A stretch of DNA of 64,000 nt from Pirellulales bacterium (GTDB taxonomy: Bacteria; Planctomycetota; Planctomycetia; Pirellulales; PALSA-1355), in assembly GCA_963733035.1 (NCBI GenBank), contig CAVTBU010000004.1, forward strand, positions 256,001 to 320,000. The letters run 5' to 3'. Shown piece after piece: positions 9,763-51,249 of the stretch (the first letter of the stretch is position 1; each line of letters starts with the position of its first letter). The notes beneath the pieces were generated by a model. That model saw nothing but the letters and a program-made list of their open reading frames with translations. It did no database searches and was not told the DNA's origin. Position numbers and translations under genes: made by a program.

Positions 9763-10540
9763 AGACTTACGACGATTGCCGACGGGTTGCTAGTTGCACT
9801 AACTTGTCACTGTGTGGCTGATTTCTTCTTCAAGGGCTCTGCGGTGCGCGAGGCCGTGCACGTCACTTGGCGCCTTTCCGCGAGTCCGAAGCACATCGCA
9901 ACTGGCCACTTAGCGTCTCACGTCGATGACGCTATCTCGACGCTGTTGGCCGGTAAAAACCTGCCGCTTGACACGGAGTCAACCGGTCTTCGGCCGCCAA
10001 GCGGAACTAGGCCATGCATTCCGATTGCATTCAAGCGATCGCAGTTCAACGAATCGCGATCGGGTGCTCCAACAGCATCACTAGGTCAGTATGGCTCGCC
10101 AATATTCGAGCGTCAGATGGGTTGTGGGTCGAGAGCACGCAGGATTTTGGCGTTCGAGTGTCGGAGCGGCCGCCTACCCGAAACCTTTCTCGAATCGGGT
10201 TCGGATGTACCATTCGTGTACCCGTTGAGCATTCTCATAGACCGATATTCCTCGCTACGTACCAGTAACCTCGCCGACGACGGCTCCAAAGAGTGGGTGC
10301 CGCCCATTTCGCCGGATTCTGCGAGGCCCATCTCGGCACGTTTCCCGCAGAGTCGAACTGTGAGCGTGCTGCTTTCCCTGTTGACGGCCGGTGTCGCGTC
10401 TAGGCGGCAGCAACAGGAACTCGACGGGTTTTGTATTGCGAAGTGGCGCTGGTATGTTGGGGGGCTCGTACCCATCGGCCCCGCGATCAGTTCGACCATT
10501 CCTAGCCAATCTACTCGACATCAGGAGCGTATTACCCGTC

Positions 10541-11839
10541 ATGGCCGTTCCGAACCAACATGCTAAAACGATCATGGAACGGCTCCTCGGTGGTATGCCA
10601 CCCGAAGAGTTGACCAGCCGCTACGGCCCCCAGAGCCCGAAGGCGCACCGCCTTCCGCCCCGTGTTCCCGGCTCGGCAGACTACAGCACGGCGGCGCTGC
10701 AGCGCCGCCGTGAGATGCTCAATAAACGGGGCATTGAGCTGCACGAGTTGGCCGGGGAGGGAAATGGGATCGAGCCTGAGGGGTTGGCCGGCAATATCGA
10801 GAATCTGGTCGGAATGGCCCGTGTGCCGATCGGAGTCATCGGCCCCCTGCGAGTTCGCGGCACGGCGGCCAATGGAGATTTCTACATTCCGCTGGCCACC
10901 ACCGAAGGTGCGTTGGTCGCGTCGTGCCAGCGGGGTTCCCAGGCGATCAGCCGATCTGGGGGTGCATCCGCGTGTTGCTTCACCGAATCCGTGTCCCGCG
11001 CCCCCTGCTTCGCCTTCGAGCGGCTGACCGAGGCGGGCCAATTCCTGGCTTGGGTACTTCCCCAGTACGACCGACTACAGGAGGTCGTAGCAAGCACTTC
11101 GCGACATTGCCAGCTACTCGACTTGCGCACGACCGTGATCGGCAAGGAGGTTTATTTAGCGTTTGAATTCACGACCGGTGATGCGGCCGGTCAGAACATG
11201 GTGACAATCGCCACCGAAGCGATCTGCAAGTCGATCCTGACCGGCGCGCCCGTGCAGCCCAGTCGCTGGTTTCTCGATGGAAACCTTTCGGGCGACAAGA
11301 AAGCGACGATGCTCGGCTTTACCTACGCACGTGGAAAGAAAGTGGTCGCAGACGTGGTAGTCCAGCGTGAAGTGGTCCGGCGTTTCTTGCACACAGAACC
11401 GGACGAGATGTTTCGCTATTGGCAGGTTTCCATGCTGGGAGGCGTGCAAAGCGGATCGATCGGCGTGCAAGGTCATTTCTCGAACTCGCTGGCCGCGATG
11501 TTCATCGCCTGCGGCCAGGATGCGGCCTGCGTGTCCGAGGCTTCGGTGGGAGTTACTCGCATGGACGTGACACCCGACGGCGACCTCTACGTCGCCGTCA
11601 GCCTGCCGAACTTGATCGTCGGCACGGTAGGCGGAGGGACGCGATTGCCAACGCAACGCGAATGCCTGGAGATGATGGATTGCTATGGTAGCGGCAAGGC
11701 CCGCAAGCTGGCCGAAATCTGTGCCGTCACGGTGATGGCAGGCGAGATCTCGATCATCGCCGCCCTGACCGCCGGTCATTTCGGTCAAGCGCATGCGACG
11801 TACGGGCGACAGCACGCCGCTCCCGATGATTCCGAGTAG
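10541..11839 (+). CDS. Class I HMG-CoA reductase-like protein
   Basis: ENLVG...VPIGVIGPL, PLATTEGALVAS, TGDAAGQNM, GNLSGDKK, ACGQD.A, VGTVGGGT, C-terminal His (GQAH). Confidence 0.9.
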   Translation: MAVPNQHAKTIMERLLGGMPPEELTSRYGPQSPKAHRLPPRVPGSADYSTAALQRRREMLNKRGIELHELAGEGNGIEPEGLAGNIENLVGMARVPIGVIGPLRVRGTAANGDFYIPLATTEGALVASCQRGSQAISRSGGASACCFTESVSRAPCFAFERLTEAGQFLAWVLPQYDRLQEVVASTSRHCQLLDLRTTVIGKEVYLAFEFTTGDAAGQNMVTIATEAICKSILTGAPVQPSRWFLDGNLSGDKKATMLGFTYARGKKVVADVVVQREVVRRFLHTEPDEMFRYWQVSMLGGVQSGSIGVQGHFSNSLAAMFIACGQDAACVSEASVGVTRMDVTPDGDLYVAVSLPNLIVGTVGGGTRLPTQRECLEMMDCYGSGKARKLAEICAVTVMAGEISIIAALTAGHFGQAHATYGRQHAAPDDSE

Positions 11840-11859
11840 TGGCACCGGCTAAAGCATTC

Positions 11860-12951
11860 ATGGGTCACTATATCGATGAACGAGCCGATTTTGGCATTAT
11901 CCGTTATGCCAATTGCTGGGAAGACGCCGACGTACTCTGCGCAGCACTCGAGCCCGCGCCTGACAAGCGCATCCTGTCGATTGCGTCAGCCGGTGACAAC
12001 GCGTTGGCGTTGTTGGCTGGCGGATGCGAGGTCGTAGCGGCCGATTTGAGCCCGGCGCAGCTCGCCTGCGTCGAGCTACGAGCCGCTGCCTTTGGAGAGC
12101 TGGACTACCAAGATACACTTGCCTTCTTGGGTGTGGCCAGTTCCTCAGAGCGGCTGGCCACCTATCGCCTGCTGGCCCACCGCTTATCTGTTGGCGCTCG
12201 GGCCTACTGGGATAGCCACGAGAACTTGATCGCCGCGGGCGTCATCCATGCGGGAAAATTCGAAGACTACTTTCGCCGGTTTCGCCGGTTCGTGCTGCCG
12301 CTGGTGCACGGACCCGGTCGCGTGCGTGAGTTGCTCGCCGATAAGCCGCCGGAATCTCGTCTCGAGTTCTACGACCGCCGCTGGAACAGTCGACGGTGGA
12401 GGCTGTTGTTTCGGGTCTTCTTCAGCCGCCTAGTGATGGGCCGTTTGGGTCGCGATCCAGAATTCTTCCGCTATGTCGAAGGTTCGGTCGCGGACCGAAT
12501 TCTCGCACGCACGCAATATGCGCTGACGACGTTGCCCACGCATGAAAACCCCTACCTGCAGTACGTTCTGCACGGCAATTTCGGACCCGCGCTTCCTCGC
12601 TATCTGCGGCCCGAGCACTATCTGAAGATCCGCGCGGGGCTCGAGCGGCTGACGCTTGTCGAAGGCACCATCGAAAGCGTGGCAGCACGTGACGGACAGA
12701 AGTTCGACGGCTACAACCTATCTGACGTCTTCGAGTATCTAGATCCGGCCACCTGTCGTACGGTTTTCGAAAAGTTGCTGGCAACGGCGAATCAGGGTGC
12801 GCGGCTCGCGTATTGGAACATGCTGGTACCCAGGGAATGCCCTCAGGAACTGGCGGCACGCATGCGGCCGCTGCGTGATCTGGCCGAGAAACAATTTGCC
12901 AAGGATCTGGCCTTCTTTTACAGCCGGTTCGTGGTGGAGGAAGTCTGTTGA
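11860..12951 (+). CDS. DUF3419 / BtaA-like SAM-dependent (3-amino-3-carboxypropyl) transferase
   Basis: IRYANCWEDAD, ILSIASAGDNAL, ADLSPAQL, GKFE.YF, NPYL, FDGYNLSDVFEY; alternative GTG start at 11839. Confidence 0.85.
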   Translation: MGHYIDERADFGIIRYANCWEDADVLCAALEPAPDKRILSIASAGDNALALLAGGCEVVAADLSPAQLACVELRAAAFGELDYQDTLAFLGVASSSERLATYRLLAHRLSVGARAYWDSHENLIAAGVIHAGKFEDYFRRFRRFVLPLVHGPGRVRELLADKPPESRLEFYDRRWNSRRWRLLFRVFFSRLVMGRLGRDPEFFRYVEGSVADRILARTQYALTTLPTHENPYLQYVLHGNFGPALPRYLRPEHYLKIRAGLERLTLVEGTIESVAARDGQKFDGYNLSDVFEYLDPATCRTVFEKLLATANQGARLAYWNMLVPRECPQELAARMRPLRDLAEKQFAKDLAFFYSRFVVEEVC

Positions 12952-14339
12952 ATCCCTTGGCAGCGGATCTCTTAGGTGGTGCTGTGGTAACGGTGCTTTT
13001 CTTGAGCATCGTAGCGGCCGCCGAGGCGTGGCGAAGATGGGGCCGTCCCGATCCGGAGTCGACTCGCAAGCTGGTTCACATCGCCGGTGGCTTGGTCGCT
13101 TTGTGCCTGCCTTTCGTGGTTCGCTCGCACTGGATCGTGGGAGCGATGGCCCTGGGCATGGCAGTCTTGTTTCTCGCCGGGAAGTGGACCGGCCAGTTGC
13201 AAAGCCTGCATGGCGTCAGTCGCCGCAGCAGTGGCACGGAATACTATCCGCTAGTCATCTATCTATTGTTTTATTTCACGCAAGGCGCACCCGTAAAATA
13301 CATCATTTCCGTGCTTGTTCTTACTACGGCCGACAGCCTGGCCGCACTGATTGGCAGCCGCTATGGGCGCCTGCGGTACGAAGTCGACAACAACTTCAAG
13401 AGCGTGGAAGGATCTCTGGTCTTCTTTCTCGCCACGTTTCTGGCGGTTCTGGTTCCACTGCTTGCCTGGCCGATGCTGATCGGTCCGCTGGAAGCCTCGC
13501 CGACTTTGGTGGCGTGCGTTTTCACTGCGTTGCTGGTAGCCTTCCCGACCACGGGGATCGAAGCCATCGCCCAGCATGGCCGCGACAATCTGTGGGTGCC
13601 TCTAGGGACGCTGCTAATTCTCAACAACACCCTTCATCTACCCATTGATTCGCTTGCCAGGTGGACTTTAGTCCTGTTGACTATTTGCGCCATCACCGGA
13701 CTGGCGGTATGGCGAATTGCAACGTTCAACGTTGGGGCCACGGTGGTGCTGATCTTGGCGGCGTACGCCTGCTGGACTCTCACTTCGATTGACTGGGCGA
13801 TCCCATTCTTTCTGGCATTCGGATACTACCTGATTGCCGTTCTCGCGAGTCCGCAGCCCATGAAGATTGCTTCTCGGGCGGTCGTGAGAGCCTTGCTGCC
13901 ACCCTTCGTCGTGATGATGGCCGCGGCGCTGCTGCGGCACGAGGGCGCGACTCAAGTGTACGGGTTCCTCTATGGACCGTTCGTAGCTGGGTGCGCGTCG
14001 ATCGCAGGCCAATCCGCATGGGACCAGCTTACACACGGTTATAGCGCGGGTCGCGCGTTCAAGTTCCTTGGGTCAATTGCGAACACATGCCTGGCGTGTA
14101 TCGCGGCCATCTTGCCCGCGCAGCTGCTGCAACCAGGTATGACGTGGATCGCGCCGCTTTGGATCGCGGCCGCAGCGCTCGCCGTTGGTATACCCTCGGG
14201 AATGCTCGTCGACCATCCCGCGATTGTGCGTTCCACACGTTTGTGGGCGCTAGCCCGCATGGGCTTCATCACAGCGGCGTTGGGGCTGGTGGCGCTCGTC
14301 CAGGCTGCGGGGCTCAGTCCGCTCTGGCATCCGCGCTAG
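12948..14339 (+). CDS. Phytol/dolichol kinase-like (SEC59/VTE5, CTP-dependent) polytopic membrane protein with an extra C-terminal TM region
   Basis: ESTRKLVHIAGG, ADSLAALIGSRYG, KSVEGS, GRDNLWVP motifs; many TM helices. Confidence 0.82.
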   Translation: MNPLAADLLGGAVVTVLFLSIVAAAEAWRRWGRPDPESTRKLVHIAGGLVALCLPFVVRSHWIVGAMALGMAVLFLAGKWTGQLQSLHGVSRRSSGTEYYPLVIYLLFYFTQGAPVKYIISVLVLTTADSLAALIGSRYGRLRYEVDNNFKSVEGSLVFFLATFLAVLVPLLAWPMLIGPLEASPTLVACVFTALLVAFPTTGIEAIAQHGRDNLWVPLGTLLILNNTLHLPIDSLARWTLVLLTICAITGLAVWRIATFNVGATVVLILAAYACWTLTSIDWAIPFFLAFGYYLIAVLASPQPMKIASRAVVRALLPPFVVMMAAALLRHEGATQVYGFLYGPFVAGCASIAGQSAWDQLTHGYSAGRAFKFLGSIANTCLACIAAILPAQLLQPGMTWIAPLWIAAAALAVGIPSGMLVDHPAIVRSTRLWALARMGFITAALGLVALVQAAGLSPLWHPR

Positions 14340-17079
14340 GGGCGACATCGAGCCTGACCGTGCCGGCCGATCCGTCCATTGTGACATGCTGGCCGCTGTT
14401 GAGCGTGGCAGTCAAGCCCCTGATGCCGACAATCGTGGGAATGCCCATCTCTCTCGCAACGACGGCGGAGTGCGAAAGGATGCTCCCCCTTTCGATTAAC
14501 AAGCCCGAGACCGCCGGATAGAGAGGCACCCAGCCTGGGTCGGTCCGTTCGGCCACGAGAATCTCGCCGTTCAACTGCACGTCGTCGCGAGGGTCGGTGA
14601 TGACAATCACTTCTCCGCTGACGATGCCCGGCGAGCATCCCACACCGTGCAACACCCCGTCTTCGCCGACTGGCGCGTGTTGCTTATTGTTGACGAACCG
14701 ATTTCGATGATAAGCCATGCCGAACGTCTCGAAGCGTTCGTCCGGGGCGGCGCACTGTGCCGAGCGGTAACCTTCGAACTCGTTTTGCCGTAGCGAGGCC
14801 AGATCCCGCAGATTCGTGGTCACCGCCGTACCTTTGACGAAGTCCCAGACTTCGTCGATGGTAAGATAGAAGACCTGTTCGGGCTCGGAAAGAATCCCTT
14901 CCTCGGCCAATCGACGCCCCAATGCCCGCAACAGTTCGCGCAGCAGGCCGTAGATCCGAGTGCGGGCGAAGCGCATGTTTTCGCGATTTTTCACGCCCTG
15001 TCGTGCCCGTTTGAGCACCGCATGAAAGACGGCCCGCTTGAGGCCGGCGGTCGGTCCTCGCAACTCCTGCCGGACTTTTGCTTCGGCATCGTGGCGCACC
15101 TTTTGCTCGCGAGACTGCATGGTGGCCACGTCCAGTGCCGTCGGATCATTTAGCGCCAGGTAGTTCCGCAGCACTTGATAAACTAAGTGTGGGCGGTCGC
15201 GCAACGAGTACTCCTCCAACTTTAATTCGTCCATGCAACGAAAGCCGTAGAGTTCCAGGTAGTGATCGAACTCCGCTTGGAACTGGTGGAAACGTTCGTC
15301 GCCGGCCACACGTTGAGGGAGTTCGACTGGCGGTACCGTCGTGATCAGATCGCGCAGCGTCGGGTTCTGCTGTGCGCCGCCCGCCAGCCGGAGGAGCATG
15401 CGGGCAGGTTCTGCACTCTCTACGCCACCTTCGCCGCAGATCAGGTCGTTTTGCAGCGATCCCGATTCATCGTGACACCACGAACCACAAAGTTTCTTCA
15501 ACAATCCATAGTAGATCATTACATAGAAATCATTGACGATCGGCGCTTTCCAATTCCAAAGCAGCGATTCCTCCATCTCGTAGTAGAGCTGCATCAGCTC
15601 GTGGGGCCGCTGGCGATCGAGGTCGAGAGCCGACCACCGATCGTAATGCTCGCGAAAGTTCGCTTCGAAGCGGGACACGATCCCTCGAATCCGTACAAAG
15701 TTGAGAGCCGAACGACACAGTAGGCGTACCAGCGCTGGCAACTCGACGAACCAACGCCGCCAGAAGCCGCGCGGCGGCTCGTCATCACAATCGAGCTGCT
15801 CCCTCAGCCCCATCATGGATTCCATGAACTGCGCGTTGTATTGAAAGCCGGGAAAGAGTCGTACCAGCCGATACCAGTTCTGCAGGTTGTAGTAGACGCG
15901 GCCGCGAAAAAGCCCCAGCATGTTTTCGAACGTCCGCTCGTTTGCCCGTACCTTGGCCTGCGAAATACCCATTACCTGGGCGAAGCAATAATAGACGATC
16001 GTATATGCTCGGCGGATAAAGCTGAACGTCATCGGCGTGGTGACGCCGGAGTAGCTTTCGATAATGTTGGAATTGTCCCACACCAGGCGATGGCCCGCGG
16101 CCGGACCACATTCCCGCAAGTTGGTGACCGGCCGCGACTGCAGCATAAACAGGCTTCCCTGGCGATCGAAGCAGAACTCGATGTCCTGTGGTCGGCCGAA
16201 ATCTCGCTCGATTTCGATTGCCGCCCGTACCGCTTGGCGAACCTGTTCGTCGGACAGACTGCTCGCGGATTGCAGGTCGAGCGGCACTTCGTCGTGCCTC
16301 AGCCCGCCCCGCTGTTCGTCGAGCACCAGTTGCCGTTGCTTAGGTACAATCGCCGCCGAGAACTCCAGCGAGTCCTTGTCAACGGTATAGGTATCGGCGT
16401 CCAGGCCGGCGCTGACAAGCCCCTCGCCGAGACCATACAGGCTGCTGACGACCACTTGGTGCACACTTTCAGTGCCAGGATTGCAGGTGAACATGACGCC
16501 GCTTTGGGTCGCATCGATCATCTTCTGTACTATCACCGCCACCGCGACGTCTGCCAGTGGCACGCCCGAGCGCAGGCGGTAGACGATCGCCCGCTCATTA
16601 AAGGCCGACGCCCATACGCCACGAATGGCGCGCAGCGTTTCATGCGGACCGCGCACAAAAAGAAAGCTGTCGTGCATGCCGGCGAAGGATTGCTGGGCTG
16701 AATCCTCATCTAGCGCAGAGGACCGAACGGCGACATAGCCTTCGGCTCGGAATGATCCGCTGTATTGCCGACAGATGAGCTGCTCCAGCTCGTCGGGAAC
16801 GGGGCAGTTGGCAATGGCCGCTCGAAGCGCCGCGGCCGCTTCAACCACGGCCGTTTCACCCTGGACGGCGCCGAGGGCCTGAATACGGGATGCGAACCCG
16901 CCGAACTGCATCGCGTGCTCGAAGGCCGCGGCCGTGACGGTAAAGAATTCCGGCACCCGCTGTCCGGTTTGCCGAAGCCGCAGCAGGTTTGCGGCCTTGC
17001 CACCCACACGCTCAGCCAGCGCATTTGACGGTGCCGACTCGTCCGTCACAAGCCAATCGTTCTCGCTCATCCGACTCAA
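14314..17079 (-). CDS. PEP-utilising / dikinase-type enzyme with RPH/PigC domain order (ATP-grasp, substrate domain, C-terminal phospho-His swivel)
   Basis: VGGKAANL, VAVRSSALDEDS...SFAG, PQDIEF, LQSRPVT, TDPGW, GSILSHSAVVAREMGIP; start at TTG 17079 or ATG 17070. Confidence 0.88.
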   Translation of the reverse strand: MSRMSENDWLVTDESAPSNALAERVGGKAANLLRLRQTGQRVPEFFTVTAAAFEHAMQFGGFASRIQALGAVQGETAVVEAAAALRAAIANCPVPDELEQLICRQYSGSFRAEGYVAVRSSALDEDSAQQSFAGMHDSFLFVRGPHETLRAIRGVWASAFNERAIVYRLRSGVPLADVAVAVIVQKMIDATQSGVMFTCNPGTESVHQVVVSSLYGLGEGLVSAGLDADTYTVDKDSLEFSAAIVPKQRQLVLDEQRGGLRHDEVPLDLQSASSLSDEQVRQAVRAAIEIERDFGRPQDIEFCFDRQGSLFMLQSRPVTNLRECGPAAGHRLVWDNSNIIESYSGVTTPMTFSFIRRAYTIVYYCFAQVMGISQAKVRANERTFENMLGLFRGRVYYNLQNWYRLVRLFPGFQYNAQFMESMMGLREQLDCDDEPPRGFWRRWFVELPALVRLLCRSALNFVRIRGIVSRFEANFREHYDRWSALDLDRQRPHELMQLYYEMEESLLWNWKAPIVNDFYVMIYYGLLKKLCGSWCHDESGSLQNDLICGEGGVESAEPARMLLRLAGGAQQNPTLRDLITTVPPVELPQRVAGDERFHQFQAEFDHYLELYGFRCMDELKLEEYSLRDRPHLVYQVLRNYLALNDPTALDVATMQSREQKVRHDAEAKVRQELRGPTAGLKRAVFHAVLKRARQGVKNRENMRFARTRIYGLLRELLRALGRRLAEEGILSEPEQVFYLTIDEVWDFVKGTAVTTNLRDLASLRQNEFEGYRSAQCAAPDERFETFGMAYHRNRFVNNKQHAPVGEDGVLHGVGCSPGIVSGEVIVITDPRDDVQLNGEILVAERTDPGWVPLYPAVSGLLIERGSILSHSAVVAREMGIPTIVGIRGLTATLNSGQHVTMDGSAGTVRLDVAPSADARAD

Positions 17080-18036
17080 GAGACAATGACTCCGTTGCGA
17101 GATCCTAATGCGAGCGCCATCGTGAGATCAAATGCGATGATGTACATGCCGGCATACGTCTCCATACGATGGGCGGTCTTCGTCGAGGTGTGGAAACGGA
17201 ATTGAAAGAACCCCAGCAGACACACTCCGTATAGTGCGACTAGCACGGCGTAGAACCACCAGGGAAGACCCAGGTGGTATCCGACCGCGGCAACCATTCC
17301 GGTATCGATCACGCGCACCAGCAGTACTGCGTAAGCCGCGCCGTAGGTGCCAAAGATCTTTGTATAGGTGTCGACTCCGTCGCGTTCGTCTTCCGGCGCG
17401 AATCTTTCGAGAAATCTCCCAGTTGAAGGTAACAAAGAAGCCGACAAACGCATAGAACCAATACCACTGCGATGCTTCCCAGAGATAGCGATTCGTAGTG
17501 TAACTGTAAACAACCATTGCGAGTAGCGGCATAATCAGCATGTGCGACGTTGCGTACAGGAGAAAGTGCTTGCGAAGCCACGAGCCGACAAAGAACTCTT
17601 TGAGCATCAGTAGCGAGAAGATGAGCACCGCGGCAACCGCCACTAGCGCGGCCGGTGAAACGAAGATGGCCCACACTAGCGCCGCGCTCAGTTCCCAGCC
17701 AATGGCCACGCCACCGAGAACTTTCAGGTCGCGGAGCGTGATCAGTCCACTTTGCAAGACGCGATCGGGATAGTGGCGGCAATCTTCGGCGTAGTCTTTG
17801 TGTTCGTCGAAGACTCGCAGGTGGAAAAAGATCGCCAATAGCGTGGCGGCCCCTACGAGCGAACTCAGCGAATAGCGCATCTGCTCGCCGGGGTGGGTCA
17901 GCGCTTGCGCGAGAAACTGATTACACGAGTAGTAGCTAACGATCAACACCCCATGCCCAACCGGCGGAAACCGTTCTTGGAGGTAGGCCCACAGCCGAAC
18001 TGGAAACGGTGAATTGACAGTCAGGTTATTCGCCAT
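17076..18036 (-). CDS. UbiA-superfamily prenyltransferase-like membrane protein, one frameshift near 17400
   Basis: ERFP, LRVFDEHKDYAED...PDRVL.SG Asp-rich motif; frame 1 ...EISRKIR continues in another frame as APEDERDGVDTYTKIFG plus TM helices. Confidence 0.75.
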
Positions 18037-18067
18037 GCGCGAGCCCGGGTGGACCACTCCTGGAATG

Positions 18068-19714
18068 CTAGGATCGCCGAGCCGCGTCCGACGAGGCCGT
18101 TAGAAGCCGTCGCAACGCCCGATAATCGACTTTCGAGCGGTGCCGCGGGTCGAGCGGCAAGGGATGCTCGGCACGGCGGACGTCATCCACCGGAAGCCCA
18201 ACCTGTTCAATCCTCTGCCGCACCCGCGTAAGTATATCGCCTCCGCATGTCGTTTCGACAACCACTACGACCCGTTCCCCCATTTTGTCATCCGGCAAGC
18301 CGATCGCGGCGATTCTCAAATTGGCGTCGCCACCGGCGCCGGCCTGTTCGACAAGTTGAGGATGCACCGCCTCACCGTCGCGGTGGATGGTTGAGTGAAC
18401 GCGGCCGACCAACCAAACGTAGCCCTGCGCGTCGACGTACCCCGTGTCGCCCATCCGATGCCAGACGGTTCCGTCGACGTCGACGATCTTGTTTTCCGCA
18501 ACTGCCGTTGCATCGCGAAAATAGCCGCGCGCGACGTGGTCTCCACAAACGATCAACTCGCCCGATTCGCCGCGGGGGACTTCCCAGGGGGCCCAGCCGG
18601 CTCCGTCCAAAGAGATCGGTCCGCCGTGAATTCGCACGACGCGCAATCGCACCAGGGGGCTCGGCCTGCCAACGCAATAGCCGGCCGCTTCGCGCGTGGC
18701 CGACGTTGCCAGGGCAATCCGTCGATCCGCCTCGATGTGGGCAACCGGTTCGGCCTCAGTCGAGCCATAGACAACCAGCAGTTGCGCGTCGGGCCAGGCG
18801 TTCCGCCAGGTGGCAAGCTGCCGATCGCTCACCGGGGCACCCCCTGTGAGAATTCGTCGCAACGAATAGTGCGCGCCTGAACGCCGGTCTTGGTATTCGG
18901 CAAGGCGGTCGATGAACGGAGGCGAGGCCGTGCAGGTCGTCACCCGATTGCGGCGCATTTGGTCCACGATGCTCGAGGCGTCCACCTGATCTACGCGCCG
19001 AAAATCGATTGACGGAATAATCGACGAAATGCCACGGGCGAGGTTATTCAATGCGAACACCGGAAACAGTGGCATATCGACGTCGTCGTCCGATTGCGGA
19101 AACTCTTGCTGCAGCGCCGCATGTTGTGCTTGCAGAAATCCATGCGTCCGCTCGACGCCCTTGGGCAGGCCGCTGGAACCGCTGGTAAATGTGATCATGG
19201 CCGCGTCGGTGGCGGCGGTCGCGGTGATGTGACCGTCGCCCGCCTGGCGCTGCAACTCGTGCAGCGAGTACCGAGCTGGCAAGCGCAACCAACAGCGGCC
19301 CGTGGTTACGGTGATCGGGACCTGCCGTAGCGAACGATCAACAAGCCGCAGCAAGTGACTCTTCGGAACGCCGATCCAAGCCGAGGTTTGTGCGAACGAC
19401 ACGAAGGCCGAGATCTGCCGACGACCGACCCAGGGATCGACGAACACGGCAGTGGCTCCGCATTTGAGCGTGGCGAGCAACAGCGTGTAGAGATCGATCG
19501 ACATCGGGATCATTAATAGGGCCCGCTCGCCCGGTCGCAGCCCCGCGGCGCGCAATCCCACACTGGTTCGATCGACACGTTCCCATAGATCGGCGAAGGT
19601 GACTCGCTCATCTCGCCCGCGCTGATCCTGCATCACCAGGGCTGTACGCGAGCCGTACTGTGCCGCAACGCGAGCCAGCAGCGCCACGACATTTCTATCG
19701 GCTTGGGCTGTCAT
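18068..19714 (-). CDS. AMP-binding adenylate-forming enzyme (OleC-like / acyl-CoA ligase)
   Basis: FTSGSSGLPKG, YGSTEAEP, WHRMGDTGY, LPLDPRHRSKVDY. Confidence 0.88.
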   Translation of the reverse strand: MTAQADRNVVALLARVAAQYGSRTALVMQDQRGRDERVTFADLWERVDRTSVGLRAAGLRPGERALLMIPMSIDLYTLLLATLKCGATAVFVDPWVGRRQISAFVSFAQTSAWIGVPKSHLLRLVDRSLRQVPITVTTGRCWLRLPARYSLHELQRQAGDGHITATAATDAAMITFTSGSSGLPKGVERTHGFLQAQHAALQQEFPQSDDDVDMPLFPVFALNNLARGISSIIPSIDFRRVDQVDASSIVDQMRRNRVTTCTASPPFIDRLAEYQDRRSGAHYSLRRILTGGAPVSDRQLATWRNAWPDAQLLVVYGSTEAEPVAHIEADRRIALATSATREAAGYCVGRPSPLVRLRVVRIHGGPISLDGAGWAPWEVPRGESGELIVCGDHVARGYFRDATAVAENKIVDVDGTVWHRMGDTGYVDAQGYVWLVGRVHSTIHRDGEAVHPQLVEQAGAGGDANLRIAAIGLPDDKMGERVVVVVETTCGGDILTRVRQRIEQVGLPVDDVRRAEHPLPLDPRHRSKVDYRALRRLLTASSDAARRS

Positions 19715-20847
19715 CTGGGCTCGCCTGCGTATTGATAGAGAACATAGCGTCGGCTCACAGTTCCTTTGTTGCTGTCGAGGCGACCGGATGGGTTTCCTTC
19801 ACGAATTAAACACAGGTTCGCCCGGCGAATCCCCCTTTGCAGGATCGCGTGGTAACATCGCCACGTCAGGGCACCCGCCACGCCAAAGCGACGATGATCG
19901 GCCAAGACGCCGACTGTTTTCATGTTCACTGCGTCGGCGGTTCGCCGGTTCAGCATAAAACGCAGCTTAGCCAGCGGTCCGTCTTTGCCGCGCATGGCCG
20001 AAACCGCGCGGTGATAGTCGACCATCGCGAACAAAAAGCCCACGGCCTCTCCCGCCGACGTCTCGGCGATCAACACGAGTGTCGGATCGATGAGCGAACG
20101 GACCGGTCGGTATAGCGCGAGAAAATCGGCCAGGCTGATTTCTTCGTAGAGAAAGTTGCCGGCAAAGATCTGTGTCGAAATCCGATAGATGATTTCAATC
20201 TCCTCCTCAAACCGGTCCATCACCAGGGGACGCAGGCGATACCCTCGGTCCAACACATCATCGTGGATCCTGGCCAGTCCGGCCGCGGCGGCCTCGATAT
20301 CTTCGATCCGAGTTGAATAATAGTTCTCTAGTGGTTCGAATCCGGCCCGTTGCCACAGGTCGCCGTAGTAGGGCCTGTTGTACGGCTCCATTAGAAAAGG
20401 AGGTTGACGGAACTGTCCGAGGTTAAATCGATACCGATGCCATGTGTCGCCGTCCATCGGTCCGACAATCGTTCGCACACCTCGCTTCATGAGCCAATCA
20501 ACGCCGGTTGTCAGTAGCTGACCAACCTCATTGGGAGCTTCGACCGCTTCGAAAAACCCCAACATGCCAACCGGCGCGTGATTCTCGTCAACCAGCACGG
20601 GTGAGATTCGGACAACCGTCCGAGCTAGCGTCCGCTTGCCGCTTCGCCACAGCAAAGCTCTTTGCCGTTCCGCAAAACGCTCGCGCAAGAGGCTTGCTCG
20701 CGTCTTGGCAAGCGGCTCGGCAATGTAATAGGGGTCATCCCGATAAATCGAACGCGGTAGCTCCAGAAAGGACTGCAAATCCTCCTCGGTGGCTAACGCG
20801 TCAATGATCACCGGTGACGACTCTTGAGACGCACGGCTCCAGAACAA
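19711..20847 (-). CDS. YghO-like tandem GNAT N-acyltransferase
   Basis: FLELPRSIYRDDP, GMLGFFEA, WL..RG...IVGP, PFLMEPYN.PYY, VGVLADHRRFGVAGAL acyl-CoA motif A; start uncertain. Confidence 0.78.
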   Translation of the reverse strand: MFWSRASQESSPVIIDALATEEDLQSFLELPRSIYRDDPYYIAEPLAKTRASLLRERFAERQRALLWRSGKRTLARTVVRISPVLVDENHAPVGMLGFFEAVEAPNEVGQLLTTGVDWLMKRGVRTIVGPMDGDTWHRYRFNLGQFRQPPFLMEPYNRPYYGDLWQRAGFEPLENYYSTRIEDIEAAAAGLARIHDDVLDRGYRLRPLVMDRFEEEIEIIYRISTQIFAGNFLYEEISLADFLALYRPVRSLIDPTLVLIAETSAGEAVGFLFAMVDYHRAVSAMRGKDGPLAKLRFMLNRRTADAVNMKTVGVLADHRRFGVAGALTWRCYHAILQRGIRRANLCLIREGNPSGRLDSNKGTVSRRYVLYQYAGEPR

Positions 20848-21448: not shown

Positions 21449-21476
21449 TTGACAAACTGTTAGTTGCATATACAAT
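21449..21476 (+). promoter_or_regulatory. Sigma70-type promoter of marR overlapped by a palindromic operator
   Basis: TTGACA(21449)-16 nt-TACAAT(21471); GTTGCATATACAA near-palindrome overlaps the -10. Confidence 0.7.
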
Positions 21477-21518
21477 CAAACCAGGGGGCATGAAGTGGGA
21501 GCCGACCATATCCAAGCG

Positions 21519-21950
21519 ATGATTGACAAGGTCGCCAGCGAGTGCGTTGCCGTTCGGCTGCGCATGCTGAATCGCGTCGTCACGAACATCTACGATGACG
21601 CGCTGCGGTCGCTTGACCTTAAGGTGAGCCAGATGAACATTCTGGTCGCCGCCGCCAAGATGGGAACGGCTCGCCCCGTTGAAGTTTGCGAGCATCTCCA
21701 TCTCGATGTTTCGACTCTCAGCCGCAACGTCGAACGAATGAAGGCACGTGGCTGGCTGGAAGTGGTGCCCGACGAGGACGGCCGCTCGCAGCCTTTCCGT
21801 CTGACACCGCAGGGGCGCAAGCTGCTGGAAAAGGCGCTCCCGGCCTGGAGCGCGGCGCAACAGCAGGTCAAGAAGGTTTTAGGAGACGGGTTCGTAGAGC
21901 AGTTGGACCAAGCCATGAAGCGGTTCAACAAGAGTGCCGCAGCGAGCTGA
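21519..21950 (+). CDS. MarR family winged-helix regulator
   Basis: ECVAVRLR...VTNIYDDAL, SQMNILV, LHLDVSTLSRNVERM...GWL, LTPQG; start at ATG 21519 or GTG 21495. Confidence 0.9.
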   Translation: MIDKVASECVAVRLRMLNRVVTNIYDDALRSLDLKVSQMNILVAAAKMGTARPVEVCEHLHLDVSTLSRNVERMKARGWLEVVPDEDGRSQPFRLTPQGRKLLEKALPAWSAAQQQVKKVLGDGFVEQLDQAMKRFNKSAAAS

Positions 21951-21965
21951 TTTTTTTTCGCGATG

Positions 21966-21981
21966 TAGTTGTATGTACAAC
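21966..21981. promoter_or_regulatory. Second putative MarR operator, immediately before the RBS of the fusion enzyme
   Basis: TAGTTGTATGTACAAC versus TAGTTGCATATACAA at 21461-21475. Confidence 0.65.
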
Positions 21982-21992
21982 AAGGAGCGGCC

Positions 21993-24455
21993 ATGAAGCT
22001 CGAAGATCATCCGACAGTGCAGCGGATTCGCCTCAAGACCGCACCTTCCGTTCCGCCCACCAAGGAGTCGCTGGATGCCGGATGGCTCAAGCAACTCGTC
22101 CTCGATGCCGGCGCTGTTGACGTGGGGTTTGTCGAAATTGGTAGACCCGCCTTGGACGATCAGCGGGAAGACATACTCAAGGCGTTCCCCCACACCAAGA
22201 CCCTAATCAGCTTCGTGGTTCGCATGAACCGAGAGGCGATTCGGACACCGGCTCGCTCGGTTTCCAACCTCGAATTCCACCATAGCGGAGAGGAGGTCAA
22301 TCACATTGCGCGGAGCGTGGTTCAGACTCTGGAAGACCGGGGAATTCGCGCCATGAACCCCGCGATGGGCTTCCCGATGGAAATGGGGCGGTTCCCCGGC
22401 AAGGTTTGGATCGTATCCCACAAGCCAGTCGCGGTGGCAGCGGGGCTTGGCATGATGGGCATTCACCGCAACGTGATCCATGAAAAGTTCGGCAATTTCA
22501 TTCTGCTTGGGACGATCCTGTTGGAAGCCGAGGTTTCAGAGTTCAGCCGGCCGATCGACTACAACCCATGCCTGGAATGCAAACTGTGCGTGGCCGCATG
22601 TCCTGTAGGGGCCATCTCGCCGGAAGGCAATTTCAACTTCTCGGCCTGCTATACCCACAACTACCGCGAGTTCATGGGCGGCTTCACCGATTGGGTCGAG
22701 CAAGTGGCTGACAGCAAGAACTCCCGCGACTACCGTAGCCGGGTCAGCGATGCGGAGTCGGCATCGATGTGGCAGAGTCTTTCCTACGGGGCGAACTACA
22801 AGGCCGCGTATTGCCTGGCGGTCTGCCCGGCTGGAGAAGATGTGATTGGGCCGTTCCTTGCTGATCGGAAGGCCTATCTCAATGAAATCGTACGGCCCCT
22901 TCAAGAGAAGGAGGAGACGATTTACGTCACTAAAAACTCCGACGCCGAGGATCATGTCGCCAAACGGTTTCCCCACAAAACAATCAAGCATGTCGGCAAT
23001 AGCCTGCGGCCAAACTCCATCGAGGTTTTTCTTAACAGAATGCCGAACGCATTCCAGCCAGGCAAGTCGACCGGATTGAACGCTACGTACCACTTCACCT
23101 TCACGGGCCATGAACAGCGGCAGGCAACGGTCGTGATTCGGGACCAGAAACTCAGCGTGTACGAGGCGCATGTCGGACAGCCCGATCTGCACGTGACCGC
23201 TGACTCACAAACGTGGATCGGCTTTTTGAGGAACGAACGAAACGTCGTATGGGCCATTCTCCGGCGGAAGATTCGGCTCGCTGGCCCACTCAAACTGCTG
23301 GTCGCGTTCGGAAAGTGCTTCCCGAGCGCAGGTGGCCGACAGGAGCTGGTCGAGTTCGTACCGCAACCCTCCAAACTCAGGGGCGGGCCTGCGCCCTACG
23401 TGAAAAATGACCCAGTTACCCGAGAAACCCGCTGGCGTGGCAAGTTCACGCTCTCGGAGGTTGTTGACGAGACTCCCGAGGTGAAGACCTTCCGCTTCGT
23501 TCCTCCTAGTGGCGGGGCAATCCCCTTCGAGTACCTGCCTGGCCAGTTCGTGACGCTCCACGTTGCGCCTCGGGGCATACCGACCAAACGTTCCTATACG
23601 ATCGCGTCGTCGCCCACATGGCGCGACCGGATCGAGATCACGGTGAAACGCGAAGGTCAGGGACTAGTCTCGCGGTGGTTGCACGACGAACTGAAGATCG
23701 GGGACGAGGTCGAGATCGAAGCGCCGAATGGGACCTTCACCTTCAACGGCAATGAGGCGGACCGAGTGGTACTGATCGGCGGCGGCGTAGGAATTACGCC
23801 TCTGATGAGCGTAGTGCGTTATCTCACCGCGACGAACTGGCCGGGCAAGATGCACTTAATTCTCGGCTTTCGGTCGCCGCGAGACTTCATTTTTCGAGAG
23901 GAACTGGCCGAACTCCAGGCACGCAACTCCAATCTCAGCGTCACGATCACCATGAGCGGTCCGGAAGACGAGCCGTGGTCGGGGCGCGTCAGGCGAATCG
24001 ATGCGACCCTGCTCACTTCGACCGTGCCTGAACTCGCGACACATCGCGTGCATGTATGCGGGCCACCGCCAATGATGGACGCAGTCAAGACTGCGCTCGT
24101 TTCGCTCGGCGTCCCCCATGCTCAAGTCAACACCGAGGCGTTCGGAACGATCAAACGCGATCCCTCCGCAAAGGATGCCGGATCAACGGAGATCGCGGGC
24201 AAGGCTTTCTTCCGGGCTTCCGGCGTGACCGCACCGGTTCCGGTCGATGCAACGATACTCGACGCGGCCGATACGGCCGGCGTCGTCATCGACAACGCCT
24301 GCCGTTCCGGCACATGCGCATCCTGCCGCGTCAAGCTGGTCTCGGGCCAGGTGACGATGGCCGTCGAGGATGCGCTGACCGATCAAGACAGAGTCGAGGG
24401 TTACATCTTGGCCTGCCAGGCCAAGATCCAGGGCGATATTGAAGTCGACGCTTGA
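21993..24455 (+). CDS. QueG/reductive-dehalogenase-like 4Fe-4S domain + SCP2 + FAD/NAD(P)H FNR + 2Fe-2S ferredoxin fusion
   Basis: SHKPVAVAAGLG..G, CLECKLCVAACP, YCLAVCP; SCP2-like YHFTFTG...PDLHVTADS; RSYTIAS, GGGVGITP, VCGP, TEAF; CRSGTCASC...LACQ; AAGGAG RBS. Confidence 0.85.
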   Translation: MKLEDHPTVQRIRLKTAPSVPPTKESLDAGWLKQLVLDAGAVDVGFVEIGRPALDDQREDILKAFPHTKTLISFVVRMNREAIRTPARSVSNLEFHHSGEEVNHIARSVVQTLEDRGIRAMNPAMGFPMEMGRFPGKVWIVSHKPVAVAAGLGMMGIHRNVIHEKFGNFILLGTILLEAEVSEFSRPIDYNPCLECKLCVAACPVGAISPEGNFNFSACYTHNYREFMGGFTDWVEQVADSKNSRDYRSRVSDAESASMWQSLSYGANYKAAYCLAVCPAGEDVIGPFLADRKAYLNEIVRPLQEKEETIYVTKNSDAEDHVAKRFPHKTIKHVGNSLRPNSIEVFLNRMPNAFQPGKSTGLNATYHFTFTGHEQRQATVVIRDQKLSVYEAHVGQPDLHVTADSQTWIGFLRNERNVVWAILRRKIRLAGPLKLLVAFGKCFPSAGGRQELVEFVPQPSKLRGGPAPYVKNDPVTRETRWRGKFTLSEVVDETPEVKTFRFVPPSGGAIPFEYLPGQFVTLHVAPRGIPTKRSYTIASSPTWRDRIEITVKREGQGLVSRWLHDELKIGDEVEIEAPNGTFTFNGNEADRVVLIGGGVGITPLMSVVRYLTATNWPGKMHLILGFRSPRDFIFREELAELQARNSNLSVTITMSGPEDEPWSGRVRRIDATLLTSTVPELATHRVHVCGPPPMMDAVKTALVSLGVPHAQVNTEAFGTIKRDPSAKDAGSTEIAGKAFFRASGVTAPVPVDATILDAADTAGVVIDNACRSGTCASCRVKLVSGQVTMAVEDALTDQDRVEGYILACQAKIQGDIEVDA

Positions 24456-24466
24456 GGGGGTAGTTC

Positions 24467-25451
24467 ATGGGGTTCGGATTATTCGCCCTTGCGTTCGTTG
24501 GCTCAGCCGTCGGACTGTGGCTCGTATCCCAGGTCACGGAAGCGCTGCGCCCCGTCCCGCAAACACCCGAGACCCTGCGCTGGGCTCCGAATATCCCGAT
24601 CGGCTACCTTGATATCGGCGGCTGCAAACTTCGTTACATCAAGGCCGGCCGGGGGCCGAATCTCGTGCTCCTCCACACCCTGCGCACCCAACTCGATCTC
24701 TTCGAGAAGGTCGTGCCGGAACTGGCTCGCCAGTTCACAGTCTACGCGCTCGATTATCCCGGCCACGGTTATTCGGACATTCCCGAAGCGCAGTACGATG
24801 CCGAATTCTTCGCCCAGTCCGTCGCGAAGTTCCTCGATGTCCTCGATCTTCACGACGTGACGCTCAGCGGTGTGTCCATCGGCGGCGCAGTCGCCCTGAT
24901 TTTGGCCGGCCAGCGAAACCCGCGAATTGCCCGGGTGGTGGCGATCAACCCGTACGACTACGCCAAGGGTCGCGGGATGGCGCGCAGCTCGCCATTGGGG
25001 TGGCTGATCACAGCAGCCTCGGACATTCCCCTAGTCGGTGAAACGATCATGCGCTTGAGAAATTTCGCGATCATGCGGGCCGTTCTCCAGGGTGGCGTCG
25101 CGAATCGCGAGAGCATCCCGCGCGCTTCTCAAGGAAATGTACCTCGTTGGCAATCGGCGCGGCCATTACCGAGCCTTTATCCGCTTGCTGCGTCAGTCGG
25201 CGAGCTGGGAAAAAGCCACCGAATCGTACAAAAACATCAGTCTCCCGGTGCATCTCGTCTGGGGCAACAAAGATTGGGCCAGGCCCGACGAGCGCGAGCA
25301 CGATCGCAGCCTGATTCCGAGGGCCGAGATGCACACCGTGGAAAATGGCGGGCACTTCTTACCGCTCGATCGGCCGGATGCCGTGGTCGATCTTCACAAA
25401 CGCATCGGGGCTGGTTCCGACGGATGTTCCGGCGGCAAAATCATCGACTAA
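24467..25451 (+). CDS. Alpha/beta fold hydrolase with N-terminal TM/signal segment, one frameshift near 25125
   Basis: LVLLHT, YALDYPGHGYS, GVSIGG nucleophile elbow; second frame LVWGNKDW...GGHFLPLDRP. Confidence 0.82.
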
Positions 25452-27459: not shown

Positions 27460-28421
27460 ATGCGGATAGTTGCCGTCACGGATTACACATTCGACGCGCT
27501 TGATATCGAAACCGATATTCTGCGACCGATCGGCGTCGAACTGCGCAGCGGGCAGTGCAAAACGCCTGAAGCGCTGATCGCGCTGGTCGCCGACGCGGAT
27601 GCAGTAATCACCCAGTTCGCACCGATTTCCGCAGAGGTCATCGGAGCGATGAAGAAAGCACGCGTCATCGTGCGTTATGGCGTTGGCGTTGACAATGTCG
27701 ATCTCGAAGCCGCGCGTGCGTGCAAAATACCAGTCTGCAACGTGCCGGCATTTTGTGTTGACGAGGTTGCGGATCACACGTTGGCGCTGCATGCTTGCCG
27801 CCACTCGATCACTGCTGTCAAATGTCATTCACGTCCGCACCGGGAAGTGGGGATTGGCGGTGCCGCTCTCCGAGATGCGAACCTTAAAAGACATGACCGT
27901 CGGCATCGTTGGATTCGGCAGAATCGGCGCAGCGGTGGCTACGCGCTTCAGCGCCGTTCAGGTGCCGGCGATTGGTCTTCGATCCGGCGGTGCCTGAGTC
28001 CGCGATTGTATCCTCGGGCTGTCAGTCCGTTTCATTGGAATCGCTGCTGGCGGATTCGGATATTGTGACGTTACACTGCCCATCAAACGCGCATACTCGT
28101 GGGCTTCTGAACCCCAACACGACCTCGCGATTAAAGCGAGGGGCGATTGTGGTCAATGTGGCGCGGGGAGACGTCATTGATACCGCATCGTTGATCAGCG
28201 CATTGCGCTCGGGCCAAATTGGCGCTGCGGCTCTTGATGTCTGCGACCCCGAACCGATACCCGCCGATAGCCCGCTACGATCGCTGCCGAACGTTCTGGT
28301 AACTTCGCACATCGCATCGGCGAGCGTGACGGCGGTCCGCAATCTGCGCGAGACGGCCGCGAGACTCGCAGTTGCGGCGCTGCAGGGTGAAGCAATTCCG
28401 AACATTGTTAATGGACTCTAG
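27460..28421 (+). CDS. D-isomer-specific 2-hydroxyacid dehydrogenase (SerA/CtBP-like), two +1 frameshifts near 27790 and 27950
   Basis: RYGVGVDNVD, EVADHT in frame 1; VGIVGFGRIG in frame 2; TLHCP, VNVARG, ALDV..PEP, TSHIA in frame 3. Confidence 0.85.
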
Positions 28422-41263: not shown

Positions 41264-41356
41264 AATCGCACGGGTCGCGAGGAGGTGGGTACGGCGCTTG
41301 CTTCCCGCCGCCAGAACAACTTCCCGTCACCGAATAGCGTCGGAGCGATTCTGGAC

Positions 41357-42730: not shown

Positions 42731-42748
42731 GCGAAGGAAGTCCCCGTT

Positions 42749-50311: not shown

Positions 50312-51249
50312 CTCGTCAAGAGACTAACGCCCTTTACCCCCTTGGAATTTACAGCGCTGCGACAATCGGCTGTCCGTGCCACTCTGCGCCTACGCTGCCA
50401 GTGCGCAACGCGCGGCCGGCGAGTCTTGGTCCGCGGCCGCCAGGCCAGCGTCGTGGGTCTTGCCAATCTGCAGGCGAGTATGCCGCGGCGGCTGGCCCGA
50501 TTGCAAGCGTGCGAGCGCGCGCGAATTCTTCGGCGTCTTGACCAACCTCCAAGTCGGTCGACGACTTGCTCAATCTGTCGTTACTTGGCCCGGTTCGGAA
50601 TTCGCAAAGTTTTCGAGTGGCCTTTTTTCGGGCTGAAAGTTGCGCGCACTTTTCTTTTCGCCTTTTGTAACCTGAAAAATGACATATGTCGTAGCCCGCA
50701 GCTTTCGCATTTTGCCCGAAATGAAACATGACGGTCCTCCGCGCGTCCCCTGTGCAGAATTTGCCGACCGTAGGCTAGCCCAACGGCTGGCTCGATTGAT
50801 AGAGGCAAAGTTTTGGAGGGGCCTACAACACGCGGCACGGCAGGAAGAATACGAGCAAGACGCCGCAATGCAGAGTCGCTACCAGTTGCAGCCGTGAAGA
50901 TCCACTGCCGCCATCGACGTTGCGGCCGAACTGCGCCGAGCGGGCTCGGCGCCACGCAAGCCCGTAGCGCGCGATGCGCAACGACCGCCGCTTCCCGCGG
51001 CTCGACCCTTTCGGGCGACCAACTTTTTTGCCCGGAATTCTCTGGACAAAGCTAGCGGGTTCCTTTACTCTGACGGGTGGCGTGTGGGCCGCCTCCTTTT
51101 GGATCGTTTATTTTTCGCGTGGCCCACGCGGACGAAAATCGGGTCGACAGTTGGCAGGACGAAGAGGCTCGCGAGGGCAACGCGAGAGTCCGGCCGAGCG
51201 AAGTGCGTCTTATTTTCGTTATCGCGTTCCTACGGACAGAGGAAGAGCC

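Follow-up and report, generated by a model that had tools for sequence, protein, structure and literature searches.

To our knowledge, only two activities are known for the class-III cobalamin (B12) enzymes, namely dehalogenation by the reductive dehalogenases (RdhA) and epoxyqueuosine reduction by QueG. The class shares a redox chain, a base-off cobalamin and one Tyr above the corrin, and further families may await discovery (PMC4646009). QueG also contains a HEAT-like tRNA domain (PMC5175355), and the self-sufficient catabolic RdhAs carry a C-terminal reductase with FNR-like and [2Fe-2S] parts that is driven by NAD(P)H (PMC10463259). In this study, we analysed a stretch of 64,000 nucleotides from a Pirellulales bacterium (contig CAVTBU010000004.1, positions 256,001 to 320,000), which is called the window and whose own numbering is used below. 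An earlier note on this DNA, made from the sequence (the original prediction), had described the gene at 21993-24455 on the forward strand as encoding a QueG/RdhA-like enzyme fused to an SCP2 lipid-binding domain and a reductase. We found that the gene is neither a queG nor an rdhA gene and that it belongs to a large, uncharacterised third lineage of class III.

One reading frame encodes a five-part protein

The open frame extends from 21969 to 24455 (+) and encodes 828 aa from a TTG codon with no internal stop, according to the open reading frame (ORF) call. The ATG at 21993 is likely the start of the gene, since it is preceded by AAGGAG at 21982-21987. The whole fused reductase gene then occupies 21993-24455 (+), stop codon included, and its product has 820 aa. 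These comprise five parts: an RdhA/QueG-fold module, an SCP2 domain, an FNR-type flavin domain, an NAD-binding domain and a plant-type [2Fe-2S] domain. In Pfam, the SCP2 match (aa 357-441) scored 24.7 bits against a cut-off of 21.3. FAD_binding_6 (aa 485-583, 51 bits), NAD_binding_1 (aa 594-699, 74.5 bits) and Fer2 (aa 743-812, 56.9 bits) were also over their cut-offs, and Fer4_16 (aa 193-279) reached 27.7 bits, under the 30-bit cut-off.

The FNR-type flavin-binding and NAD(P)H-binding domains together span aa 485-699 (23445-24089, +) and include the invariant residues R533-S-Y-T, G596-G-V-G-I-T-P and C689-G-P. The plant-type [2Fe-2S] ferredoxin domain, aa 743-812 (24219-24428, +), has the motif C770-x4-C775-x2-C778 ... 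C808, of which all four Cys are invariant. In alignment A1, which contains 20 close homologues, the cofactor motifs were invariant in every domain. The best NCBIfam matches of the C-terminal third were the reductases GbcB, PRK10684 and PaaE, all below their cut-offs. Pfam detected, in one polypeptide, both the plant-type [2Fe-2S] domain and the FNR-like flavin/NAD(P)H module that characterise self-sufficient class-III enzymes. No twin-arginine motif was visible in the N-terminus of the 820-aa protein.

Among the matches listed, 120 homologues with 63-90% identity were co-linear with the ORF, and 118 of these covered 100% of the query (two were partial). Because of these co-linear full-length homologues, the ORF is no accident of assembly. 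Among public reads, no RNA set matching the sequence was listed, and the best DNA set shared 0.23 of the sampled words; its contigs were short, and none spanned the junction from core and SCP2 to the reductase. Public reads neither back nor split the ORF, and its continuity rests on the co-linear homologues. These results agree with the original prediction of a single uninterrupted ORF and of real SCP2, FNR and [2Fe-2S] domains, the SCP2 domain being recognised by fold as well as by Pfam.

The N-terminal core has the fold of RdhA and QueG

A structure model of aa 1-450 was built on alignment A3, which contains 37 diverse relatives. It had a predicted local distance difference test score (pLDDT) of 92.6 and a predicted template modelling score (pTM) of 0.88. 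The full-length model from A1 had a mean pLDDT of 58.1 and a pTM of 0.38; it was unusable for the domain arrangement, and the aa 1-450 model was used instead. The top Foldseek matches of the core model were reductive dehalogenases and QueG only, with E values from 1.9e-9 to 1e-6. In VIA-align, residues 16-309 of the model matched the PceA-type RdhA 8q4h_A with Z 18.1 and a root-mean-square deviation (rmsd) of 3.2 Å over 235 aa. Z was 17.9 to PceA 4ur3, 16.9 to NpRdhA 4ras and 15.8 to QueG 5d6s, and each match spanned both modules. The B12 chaperone CblD matched the first module alone, with Z 10.7. Alignment of the core with the genome's own QueG by hhalign gave a probability of 97.6%.

In the model, the core therefore has the class-III architecture, a nitroreductase-like module followed by a bacterial-ferredoxin-like module. 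This catalytic core of RdhA/QueG type covers aa 12-309 (22026-22919, +), with the presumed corrinoid module first and the ferredoxin-like module, which has seven Cys, second. The QueG/RdhA-like N-terminal domain of the original prediction is weak by sequence and clear by fold.

The SCP2 domain, aa 341-448 (23013-23336, +), was compared in the same way. VIA-align gave Z 14.4-14.5 to SCP2/SCP-2L proteins (8af3, 1ikt) and Z 15-16 to the C-terminal SCP2-like domains of the alkylsulfatases SdsA1 and Pisa1 (2cfz, 2yhe), the latter with an rmsd of about 2 Å over about 105-109 residues. In both the fused protein and the alkylsulfatases, a lipid-binding domain is appended to a catalytic domain, and some relatives of the fused protein match Pfam Alkyl_sulf_C. 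The catalytic partner differs. The SCP2 domain closes in a conserved 'GKCFP' containing C442, and we know of no counterpart of this C-terminal 'CFP'.

The gene belongs to a third lineage of class III

By sequence, the N-terminal 346 aa matched QueG best among solved proteins (5d6s, E 1.6e-7), followed by RdhA (8q4h, E 0.002). The profile match was E 4.1e-13 to QueG and E 1.5e-12 to PceA-type RdhA over profile positions 64-208. The NCBIfam QueG model TIGR00276 reached 48.4 bits with the 820-aa protein, over aa 141-220 only. A canonical QueG is encoded elsewhere in the genome (G000:C7:166190-167182, 356.4 bits), and the fused gene is single-copy.

The fused protein resembles QueG (TIGR00276; 5d6s, 5d08) in its nitroreductase-like module followed by a two-cluster ferredoxin module, which superpose over about 205 residues. 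It also shares the A-G-L-G-x-x-G loop, the Cys spacing including the equivalent of the lone Cys214, a basic residue at the Arg141 position and the cytoplasmic location. It differs from QueG in that SCP2 stands in place of the HEAT-like tRNA domain, the D-Y-H motif is not retained, Ala occupies the Cys240 equivalent and a reductase is fused on.

The cytoplasmic RdhAs BhbA, JtRdhA and NpRdhA (4ras, 6zy1) share the class-III fold with the core at Z 16.6-16.9, and the self-sufficient catabolic RdhAs share the order of a C-terminal reductase after the core. Unlike these, the fused protein has SCP2 between core and reductase and seven rather than eight Cys, and NpRdhA chains have about 700 aa whereas the core here has about 310. 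The respiratory RdhA PceA (8q4h, 4ur3) gave the best structural matches. The fused protein differs from PceA in having no visible twin-arginine signal, no membrane-anchor-like gene adjoining and a context of aerobic soil and water bacteria.

Seven cysteines and the candidate active site

The seven Cys of the ferredoxin-like module are C193, C196, C199, C203, C219, C274 and C278, and all of them were invariant in the 37 diverse relatives. From sequence and alignments, the Fe-S motifs are C193-x2-C196-x2-C199-x3-C203-P ... C219 ... A271-x2-C274-x3-C278-P (22569-22829, +). Eight Cys for two [4Fe-4S] clusters are a trait of class III, and seven were found here. For numbering, we used the hmmsearch alignment to Bacillus subtilis QueG, anchored at Cys188, Cys214 and Cys240/243/247, with the motif taken from PMC5175355. 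The window's Cys map one to one on Cys188/191/194/198/214/240/243/247 of that enzyme, except that A271 stands at Cys240. C193, C196, C199 and C278 are the equivalents of the distal-cluster ligands. C203, C219 and C274 are the equivalents of three ligands of the proximal, cobalamin-side cluster, and A271 is at the position of the fourth. In B. subtilis QueG, the cluster with Cys240 adjoins the cobalamin (PMC5175355).

The Cys240-equivalent position was Ser or Ala in all 120 fused homologues listed. Among 150 representatives of the wider family, 65 contained both motifs; the Cys was absent in 40 of these and kept in 25. The original prediction had counted seven Cys and had noted that the string KAAYCLAVCP lacks the first Cys; the count held, and the absence proved to be clade-wide. 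The missing Cys defines a large sub-clade. In ferredoxins, a missing middle Cys is a classical sign of a [3Fe-4S] or convertible cluster. Judged from the sequence, the three-Cys proximal cluster is probably a [3Fe-4S] cluster or one with an open iron. C442 of the SCP2 domain was considered as a substitute ligand and rejected; it is present in 7-Cys and 8-Cys forms alike.

Other residues of the candidate active site were compared with the solved enzymes. K144 is at least 90% conserved in alignments of 31 and 37 sequences and aligns with B. subtilis QueG Arg141, which sits 4 Å under the corrin (PMC5175355). T221 and R225, in a near-invariant T-H-N-Y-R-E segment, align with Ser212 and Gln216, which line the cavity of Streptococcus thermophilus QueG (PMC4646009). 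Y224 and H222 are near-invariant within the same cavity-lining segment. One Tyr lies above the corrin in all three solved enzymes (QueG Tyr101, PceA Tyr246; PMC4646009). Its position in the window's protein corresponds to about E100-V102 by the RdhA profile and by hhalign to the genome's own QueG, or to F95 when 'DYH' is placed by eye onto 'EFH'; both alignments are of low confidence.

Cobalamin is plausibly available to carriers of the gene. In the phylum sample, QueG was found in 10 of 10 carrier genomes and in 125 of 191 non-carriers, a weak comparison as kin are not independent.

The family is widespread and has been fused more than once

The family was searched in the full library with the N-terminal 346 aa as query. 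This gave 3,096 representative clusters at E <= 0.001 and 287 at E <= 1e-30. Five architectures were found by Pfam in 21 scanned representatives. The commonest was core plus SCP2, of about 445 aa, and forms of this kind also make up nine ESM Atlas clusters. The core alone, of about 330-370 aa, and the window's form, core-SCP2-reductase, were also present. In P0128 (811 aa) the order is opposite, with FNR/[2Fe-2S] N-terminal to core and SCP2, and in P0133 (571 aa) a cupin replaces SCP2 after the core. Because fusion occurred in two independent orders (Rosetta-stone evidence), we take the FNR/[2Fe-2S] module as the electron donor of the core. The original prediction had spoken of an SCP2 insertion. 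This is not peculiar to the gene: the core normally has SCP2 on its C-terminal side, and it is the reductase that is added optionally.

In species-representative genomes, 572 stretches encoded a relative and 80 loci were kept. The gene was found in 76 of them; simple ORF calling yielded no target ORF in L028, L029, L044 and L058, which do not enter the counts. In L072 the gene lies in two pieces, and the tree was made without it. Of the 75 intact loci, 62 had unfused core-plus-SCP2 forms of about 445 aa, 10 had fused forms and three were cut or unclear. Over aa 1-444, the closest relatives of the window's gene were unfused Planctomycetota genes with 87-91% identity. In a quick version of the tree, the window's gene fell into a clade with good support, whose 20 rows comprise 16 unfused and four fused forms. 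The fusion state required four changes on this tree, and at least two of these were forced by supported branches.

The gene was patchy in the phylum, being present in 10 of 201 sampled genomes, the window's own (G000) included. The open frames of the other nine carriers had 255-508 aa, too short for the 820-aa fused form. The family as a whole extends over many phyla and occurs, for example, in Nitrospirota, methanotrophs, Paenibacillus and cyanobacteria. Plasmids of Nostoc punctiforme PCC 73102, Nostoc sp. C052 and two Priestia megaterium strains carry unfused copies under the annotation 'SCP2 sterol-binding domain-containing protein'. The patchy spread across phyla, together with the occurrence on plasmids, speaks for a gene that is accessory and moves horizontally.

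Names in the cluster, homologue and ESM Atlas entries were automatic only, some of them 'QueG', or missing. No paper describing the architecture or the family was found in the literature searched, which covered subscription journals in part and did not include supplements.

A conserved repressor, operator and enzyme form a unit

A MosR-like MarR-family repressor gene lies directly upstream of the fused gene (21495-21950, +; 151 aa from GTG; Pfam MarR_2, E 2.6e-10). A sigma-70-like promoter, TTGACA-16 nt-TACAAT, precedes marR at 21449-21476 (+) with 11 of 12 consensus matches, to a consensus that may not be the host's. The -10 hexamer is overlapped by an operator-like palindrome, GTTGCATATACAAT, at 21463-21476. 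It has two mismatches against the copy before the reductase gene, the perfect palindrome GTTGTATGTACAAC at 21968-21981, which is a putative MarR operator and ends 12 nt before the reductase ATG. Right after the marR stop and before this palindrome, a run of 7-8 T is found in the window (21951-21967), and it is conserved in the Planctomycetota loci L002, L004, L005, L008-L011 and L013. It may be what remains of a terminator, or it may belong to an internal promoter.

The arrangement was examined in the related loci. By tblastn, 54 of 76 loci have a MarR gene immediately before the homologous gene and in the same orientation, and six more have one elsewhere. The remaining 16 had no MarR gene, and five of these offer less than 500 bp of upstream sequence. 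In 42 of 75 loci, which come from Planctomycetota, cyanobacteria, Paenibacillus and Acidobacteriota, the palindrome core TGYATRTRCA occurred no more than 110 bp ahead of the homologous reductase gene; in 26 of 39 loci it was found close to the start of marR. The background was 43 matches in 921,904 other bases of these loci, some of the matches being the marR copies. A literature search for the palindrome words returned only unrelated results. The MarR control in the original prediction was confirmed as strongly conserved, with a palindrome before both genes. By sequence, repressor, operator and enzyme form a conserved unit.

NCBIfam gave only weak, generic matches to the window's MarR protein. 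Its best solved relative was 4fx0/4fx4 (E 6.4e-11, aa 15-132). This is MosR, an oxidation sensor that leaves DNA upon formation of a Cys10-Cys12 disulphide at the start of helix alpha-1 and controls an oxidoreductase gene (PMC5823404). The window's C17 aligns with the first Cys of MosR 'ECAC', and this Cys of helix alpha-1 is kept in 40 of 41 regulators. As with MosR, the regulator gene adjoins an oxidoreductase gene. It differs from MosR in having only one of the two disulphide Cys, and the gene it would control encodes another kind of oxidoreductase.

Proposed function and alternative explanations

We think it fairly likely that the fused protein is a cytoplasmic, self-sufficient enzyme of the third class-III lineage that is induced by oxidants or electrophiles, is driven by NAD(P)H and strips a lipid-like molecule of an oxygen or halogen substituent. 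Electrons would pass from NAD(P)H to the flavin, to the plant-type [2Fe-2S] cluster and to the distal [4Fe-4S] cluster (C193, C196, C199, C278). They would then reach the proximal three-Cys cluster (C203, C219, C274), a base-off corrinoid held by the nitroreductase-like module and finally the substrate. The corrinoid is suggested by the alignments and the structure model. SCP2 may bind a greasy, lipid-like substrate and hand it to the active site.

The reaction would most likely be the two-electron reductive removal of a leaving group. As leaving group we favour an oxygen substituent, an epoxide or another, carried by an oxidised lipid or isoprenoid, and we rank a halogen second. We lean to oxygen removal (epoxide to alkene, as in QueG) because the regulator resembles an oxidation sensor, the closest sequence ties are to QueG and an acidic residue may stand at the position of the QueG Asp. 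The MosR-like MarR protein would repress at the two palindromic sites and be released on oxidation or alkylation of its conserved N-terminal Cys. From the context, the role may be one of detoxification.

Several observations weigh against this proposal. According to PMC4646009, class III has no sequence motif for cobalamin, and neither a cobalamin gene nor a riboswitch recurred beside the gene among the related loci. On the genome's contigs (6.65 Mb, 10 contigs), the match of the fused gene to the QueG model was confined to model positions 131-208 and reached 49.7 bits, where the cut-off is 200, and the RdhA model TIGR02486 gave 29.4 bits against a cut-off of 160.35. No conserved Tyr was found at any candidate position of the class-III Tyr, where the alignments are of low confidence. 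The QueG catalytic Asp aligns, also with low confidence, with E130, which is acidic in most relatives. With three Cys at the proximal cluster, the clade departs from the redox chain of the solved enzymes. In most relatives, no dedicated reductase is encoded close to the gene. Both MosR Cys are present in 16 of 41 regulators, and the window's regulator has only the first, with Ala at the Cys12 equivalent. As for the substrate class, only the context points to it.

The main rival is a cobalamin-free mechanism, which we consider unlikely. Here the nitroreductase-like module would have lost the corrinoid or would bind flavin, and the open iron of the three-Cys cluster would reduce the substrate in an Fe-S or flavin/Fe-S reductase. 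IspG and IspH are [4Fe-4S] enzymes of reductive deoxygenation in which the substrate is at the cluster. Such a mechanism would fit the loss of the active-site-side ligand in the 120 fused homologues and 40 of the 65 representatives, the absence of a conserved Tyr at the candidate positions and the lack of B12-related neighbours at related loci. Flavin enzymes and B12 chaperones belong to the fold family as well (PMC4646009), and one such chaperone, CblD, was matched by the first module. However, 25 of the 65 representatives keep eight Cys, so the open iron is no family-wide catalytic device. The closest folds, ferredoxin module included, are corrinoid enzymes (Z 16-18) and not flavin nitroreductases. 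The basic K144 at the place under the corrin and the retention of QueG, itself a B12 enzyme, in all ten carrier genomes of the phylum sample also argue against it.

A catabolic reductive dehalogenase, a divergent sister of BhbA, NpRdhA and JtRdhA that takes Cl or Br off lipophilic natural organohalides such as halogenated lipids and phenols, likewise seems improbable to us. RdhAs are the best structural matches, and the protein is cytoplasmic, lacking the N-terminal twin-arginine motif. A C-terminal PDR-type reductase is also found in self-sufficient RdhAs (PMC10463259), cytosolic rdhA-like genes often occur with IclR/MarR regulators (PMC12219181), and the Nostoc copy has GSTs and a TauD/TfdA dioxygenase as neighbours. 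Nevertheless, the TIGR02486 score is far under its cut-off and no Tyr is conserved at the RdhA proton-donor position. The regulator is like an oxidation sensor and not a substrate sensor, and the family is spread over cyanobacteria, Paenibacillus, Nitrospirota and methanotrophs with no connection to organohalide catabolic clusters already known. A second epoxyqueuosine reductase with tRNA as its substrate, as the best match among solved proteins and the automatic names would have it, is very improbable given the canonical QueG elsewhere in the genome, the sub-cut-off score of the fused gene, the exchange of the HEAT-like tRNA-binding domain for SCP2 and the loss of D-Y-H.

Within the preferred reading of an NAD(P)H-driven class-III reductase, we tentatively raise a more specific possibility. 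The lineage could be a third functional branch that acts on membrane lipids as an oxidant-induced repair system. By cob(I)alamin chemistry of the QueG kind, epoxides of lipids, quinones or carotenoids would be turned back to double bonds, with SCP2 extracting the damaged lipid. In the aerobic clade, the proximal cluster would have been remodelled to an oxygen-tolerant three-Cys form, and the fused version would run on NAD(P)H alone.

The fused gene is a convenient handle on the role of a widespread enzyme family. It identifies the electron donor and should permit simple NAD(P)H-coupled assays without a partner search, as for the self-sufficient RdhAs (PMC10463259). The conserved repressor and operator offer a second route to function, the inducer of the operon. 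Unfused homologues are at hand on plasmids of the culturable N. punctiforme PCC 73102 and P. megaterium. For metalloenzyme specialists, the three-Cys proximal cluster would be of interest as a naturally occurring variation of the redox chain.

Neighbouring genes and other features of the window

Directly downstream of the fused gene lies an alpha/beta serine hydrolase gene (24467-25391, +), identified by Pfam and tblastn and frameshifted near 25118-25125. Pfam Abhydrolase_1 matches only its N-terminal half, and tblastn with intact homologues placed the frame switch at about 25120/25125. Contigs of relatives with about 93% identity have two extra bases (CG) behind 25118. No near-identical read covered the frameshift, and a real mutation and an assembly error were not separable. 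The product is 64-70% identical to the hydrolases that follow the fused gene in L034, L036, L062, L065 and L077. It is a serine hydrolase because of the motifs HTLR and G-x-S-I-G-G, which are present in 7 of 10 members of the hydrolase neighbour cluster. Its solved relatives include epoxide hydrolases and haloalkane dehalogenases. The neighbouring hydrolase of the original prediction is thus present, but it is frameshifted and of the serine type rather than of the epoxide hydrolase or haloalkane dehalogenase type.

The predicted island location was not borne out. The 64-kb window contains no tRNA, and no integrase, transposase or phage family was detected among ORFs of at least 100 aa (45 ORFs from the greedy call, all scanned except 28025-28405 on the reverse strand). 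The dip in GC content is mild, 0.556 at 20-22 kb in a window range of 0.556-0.634.

Neighbours of the gene at related loci vary and are mostly of redox or detoxification types. The recurrent ones were SDR (17 loci), alpha/beta hydrolase (9), Zn-ADH (5) and NmrA-like (5) genes, together with thioredoxin, MFS and ICMT-family methyltransferase genes. The cluster of neighbours called c6 was rejected as a real gene, being an antisense shadow ORF of marR. On N. punctiforme plasmid pNPUN01 (L092, 236719-248053), MarR, GST and ICMT-family methyltransferase genes come before the unfused gene, which is adjoined by a TauD/TfdA dioxygenase and an IS701 transposase. On the P. megaterium plasmid (L093), a TetR gene precedes the unfused gene, and genes for an ABC permease, an SDR, FabF and a MaoC dehydratase follow it.

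Upstream of marR, the region 10391-20847 encodes HMG-CoA reductase, a DUF3419 protein, a 463-aa membrane protein without family and a 921-aa PPDK_N/PEP-utiliser protein. It also encodes a UbiA-like prenyltransferase, an AMP-binding ligase and a 378-aa protein without family. It looks like an isoprenoid or lipid-modification cluster and is not conserved beside the reductase in relatives. As a functional partner, this cluster (HMG-CoA reductase, UbiA-like, PEP-utilising and AMP-ligase genes) was rejected, since it was not among the recurrent neighbours. The C-terminal translation of the UbiA-like prenyltransferase ORF (17128-18057, -) looks out of frame; ORF 17076-17513 overlaps it, and this may be a frameshift.

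A D-2-hydroxyacid dehydrogenase appears to be split at 27460-28421, where two overlapping frames encode its catalytic domain (27460-28068) and its NAD domain (27909-28421). The split dehydrogenase and the broken hydrolase suggest several real pseudogenes or assembly indel errors. The region 41285-49527 contains an MFS transporter, a nitrite/sulfite reductase, a Rieske-FNR fusion and a 1,041-aa molybdopterin oxidoreductase, and it looks like assimilatory nitrate/nitrite reduction. At 50974-58011, a 2,346-aa ORF has right-handed beta-helix, NosD-like and Chlamydia PMP repeats, and its product is probably surface-exposed or secreted. The region 58068-60232 contains a divergent TetR/cytochrome P450 pair and then an AHSA1/polyketide-cyclase-like gene, an ArsR-type regulator and an NmrA-like gene.

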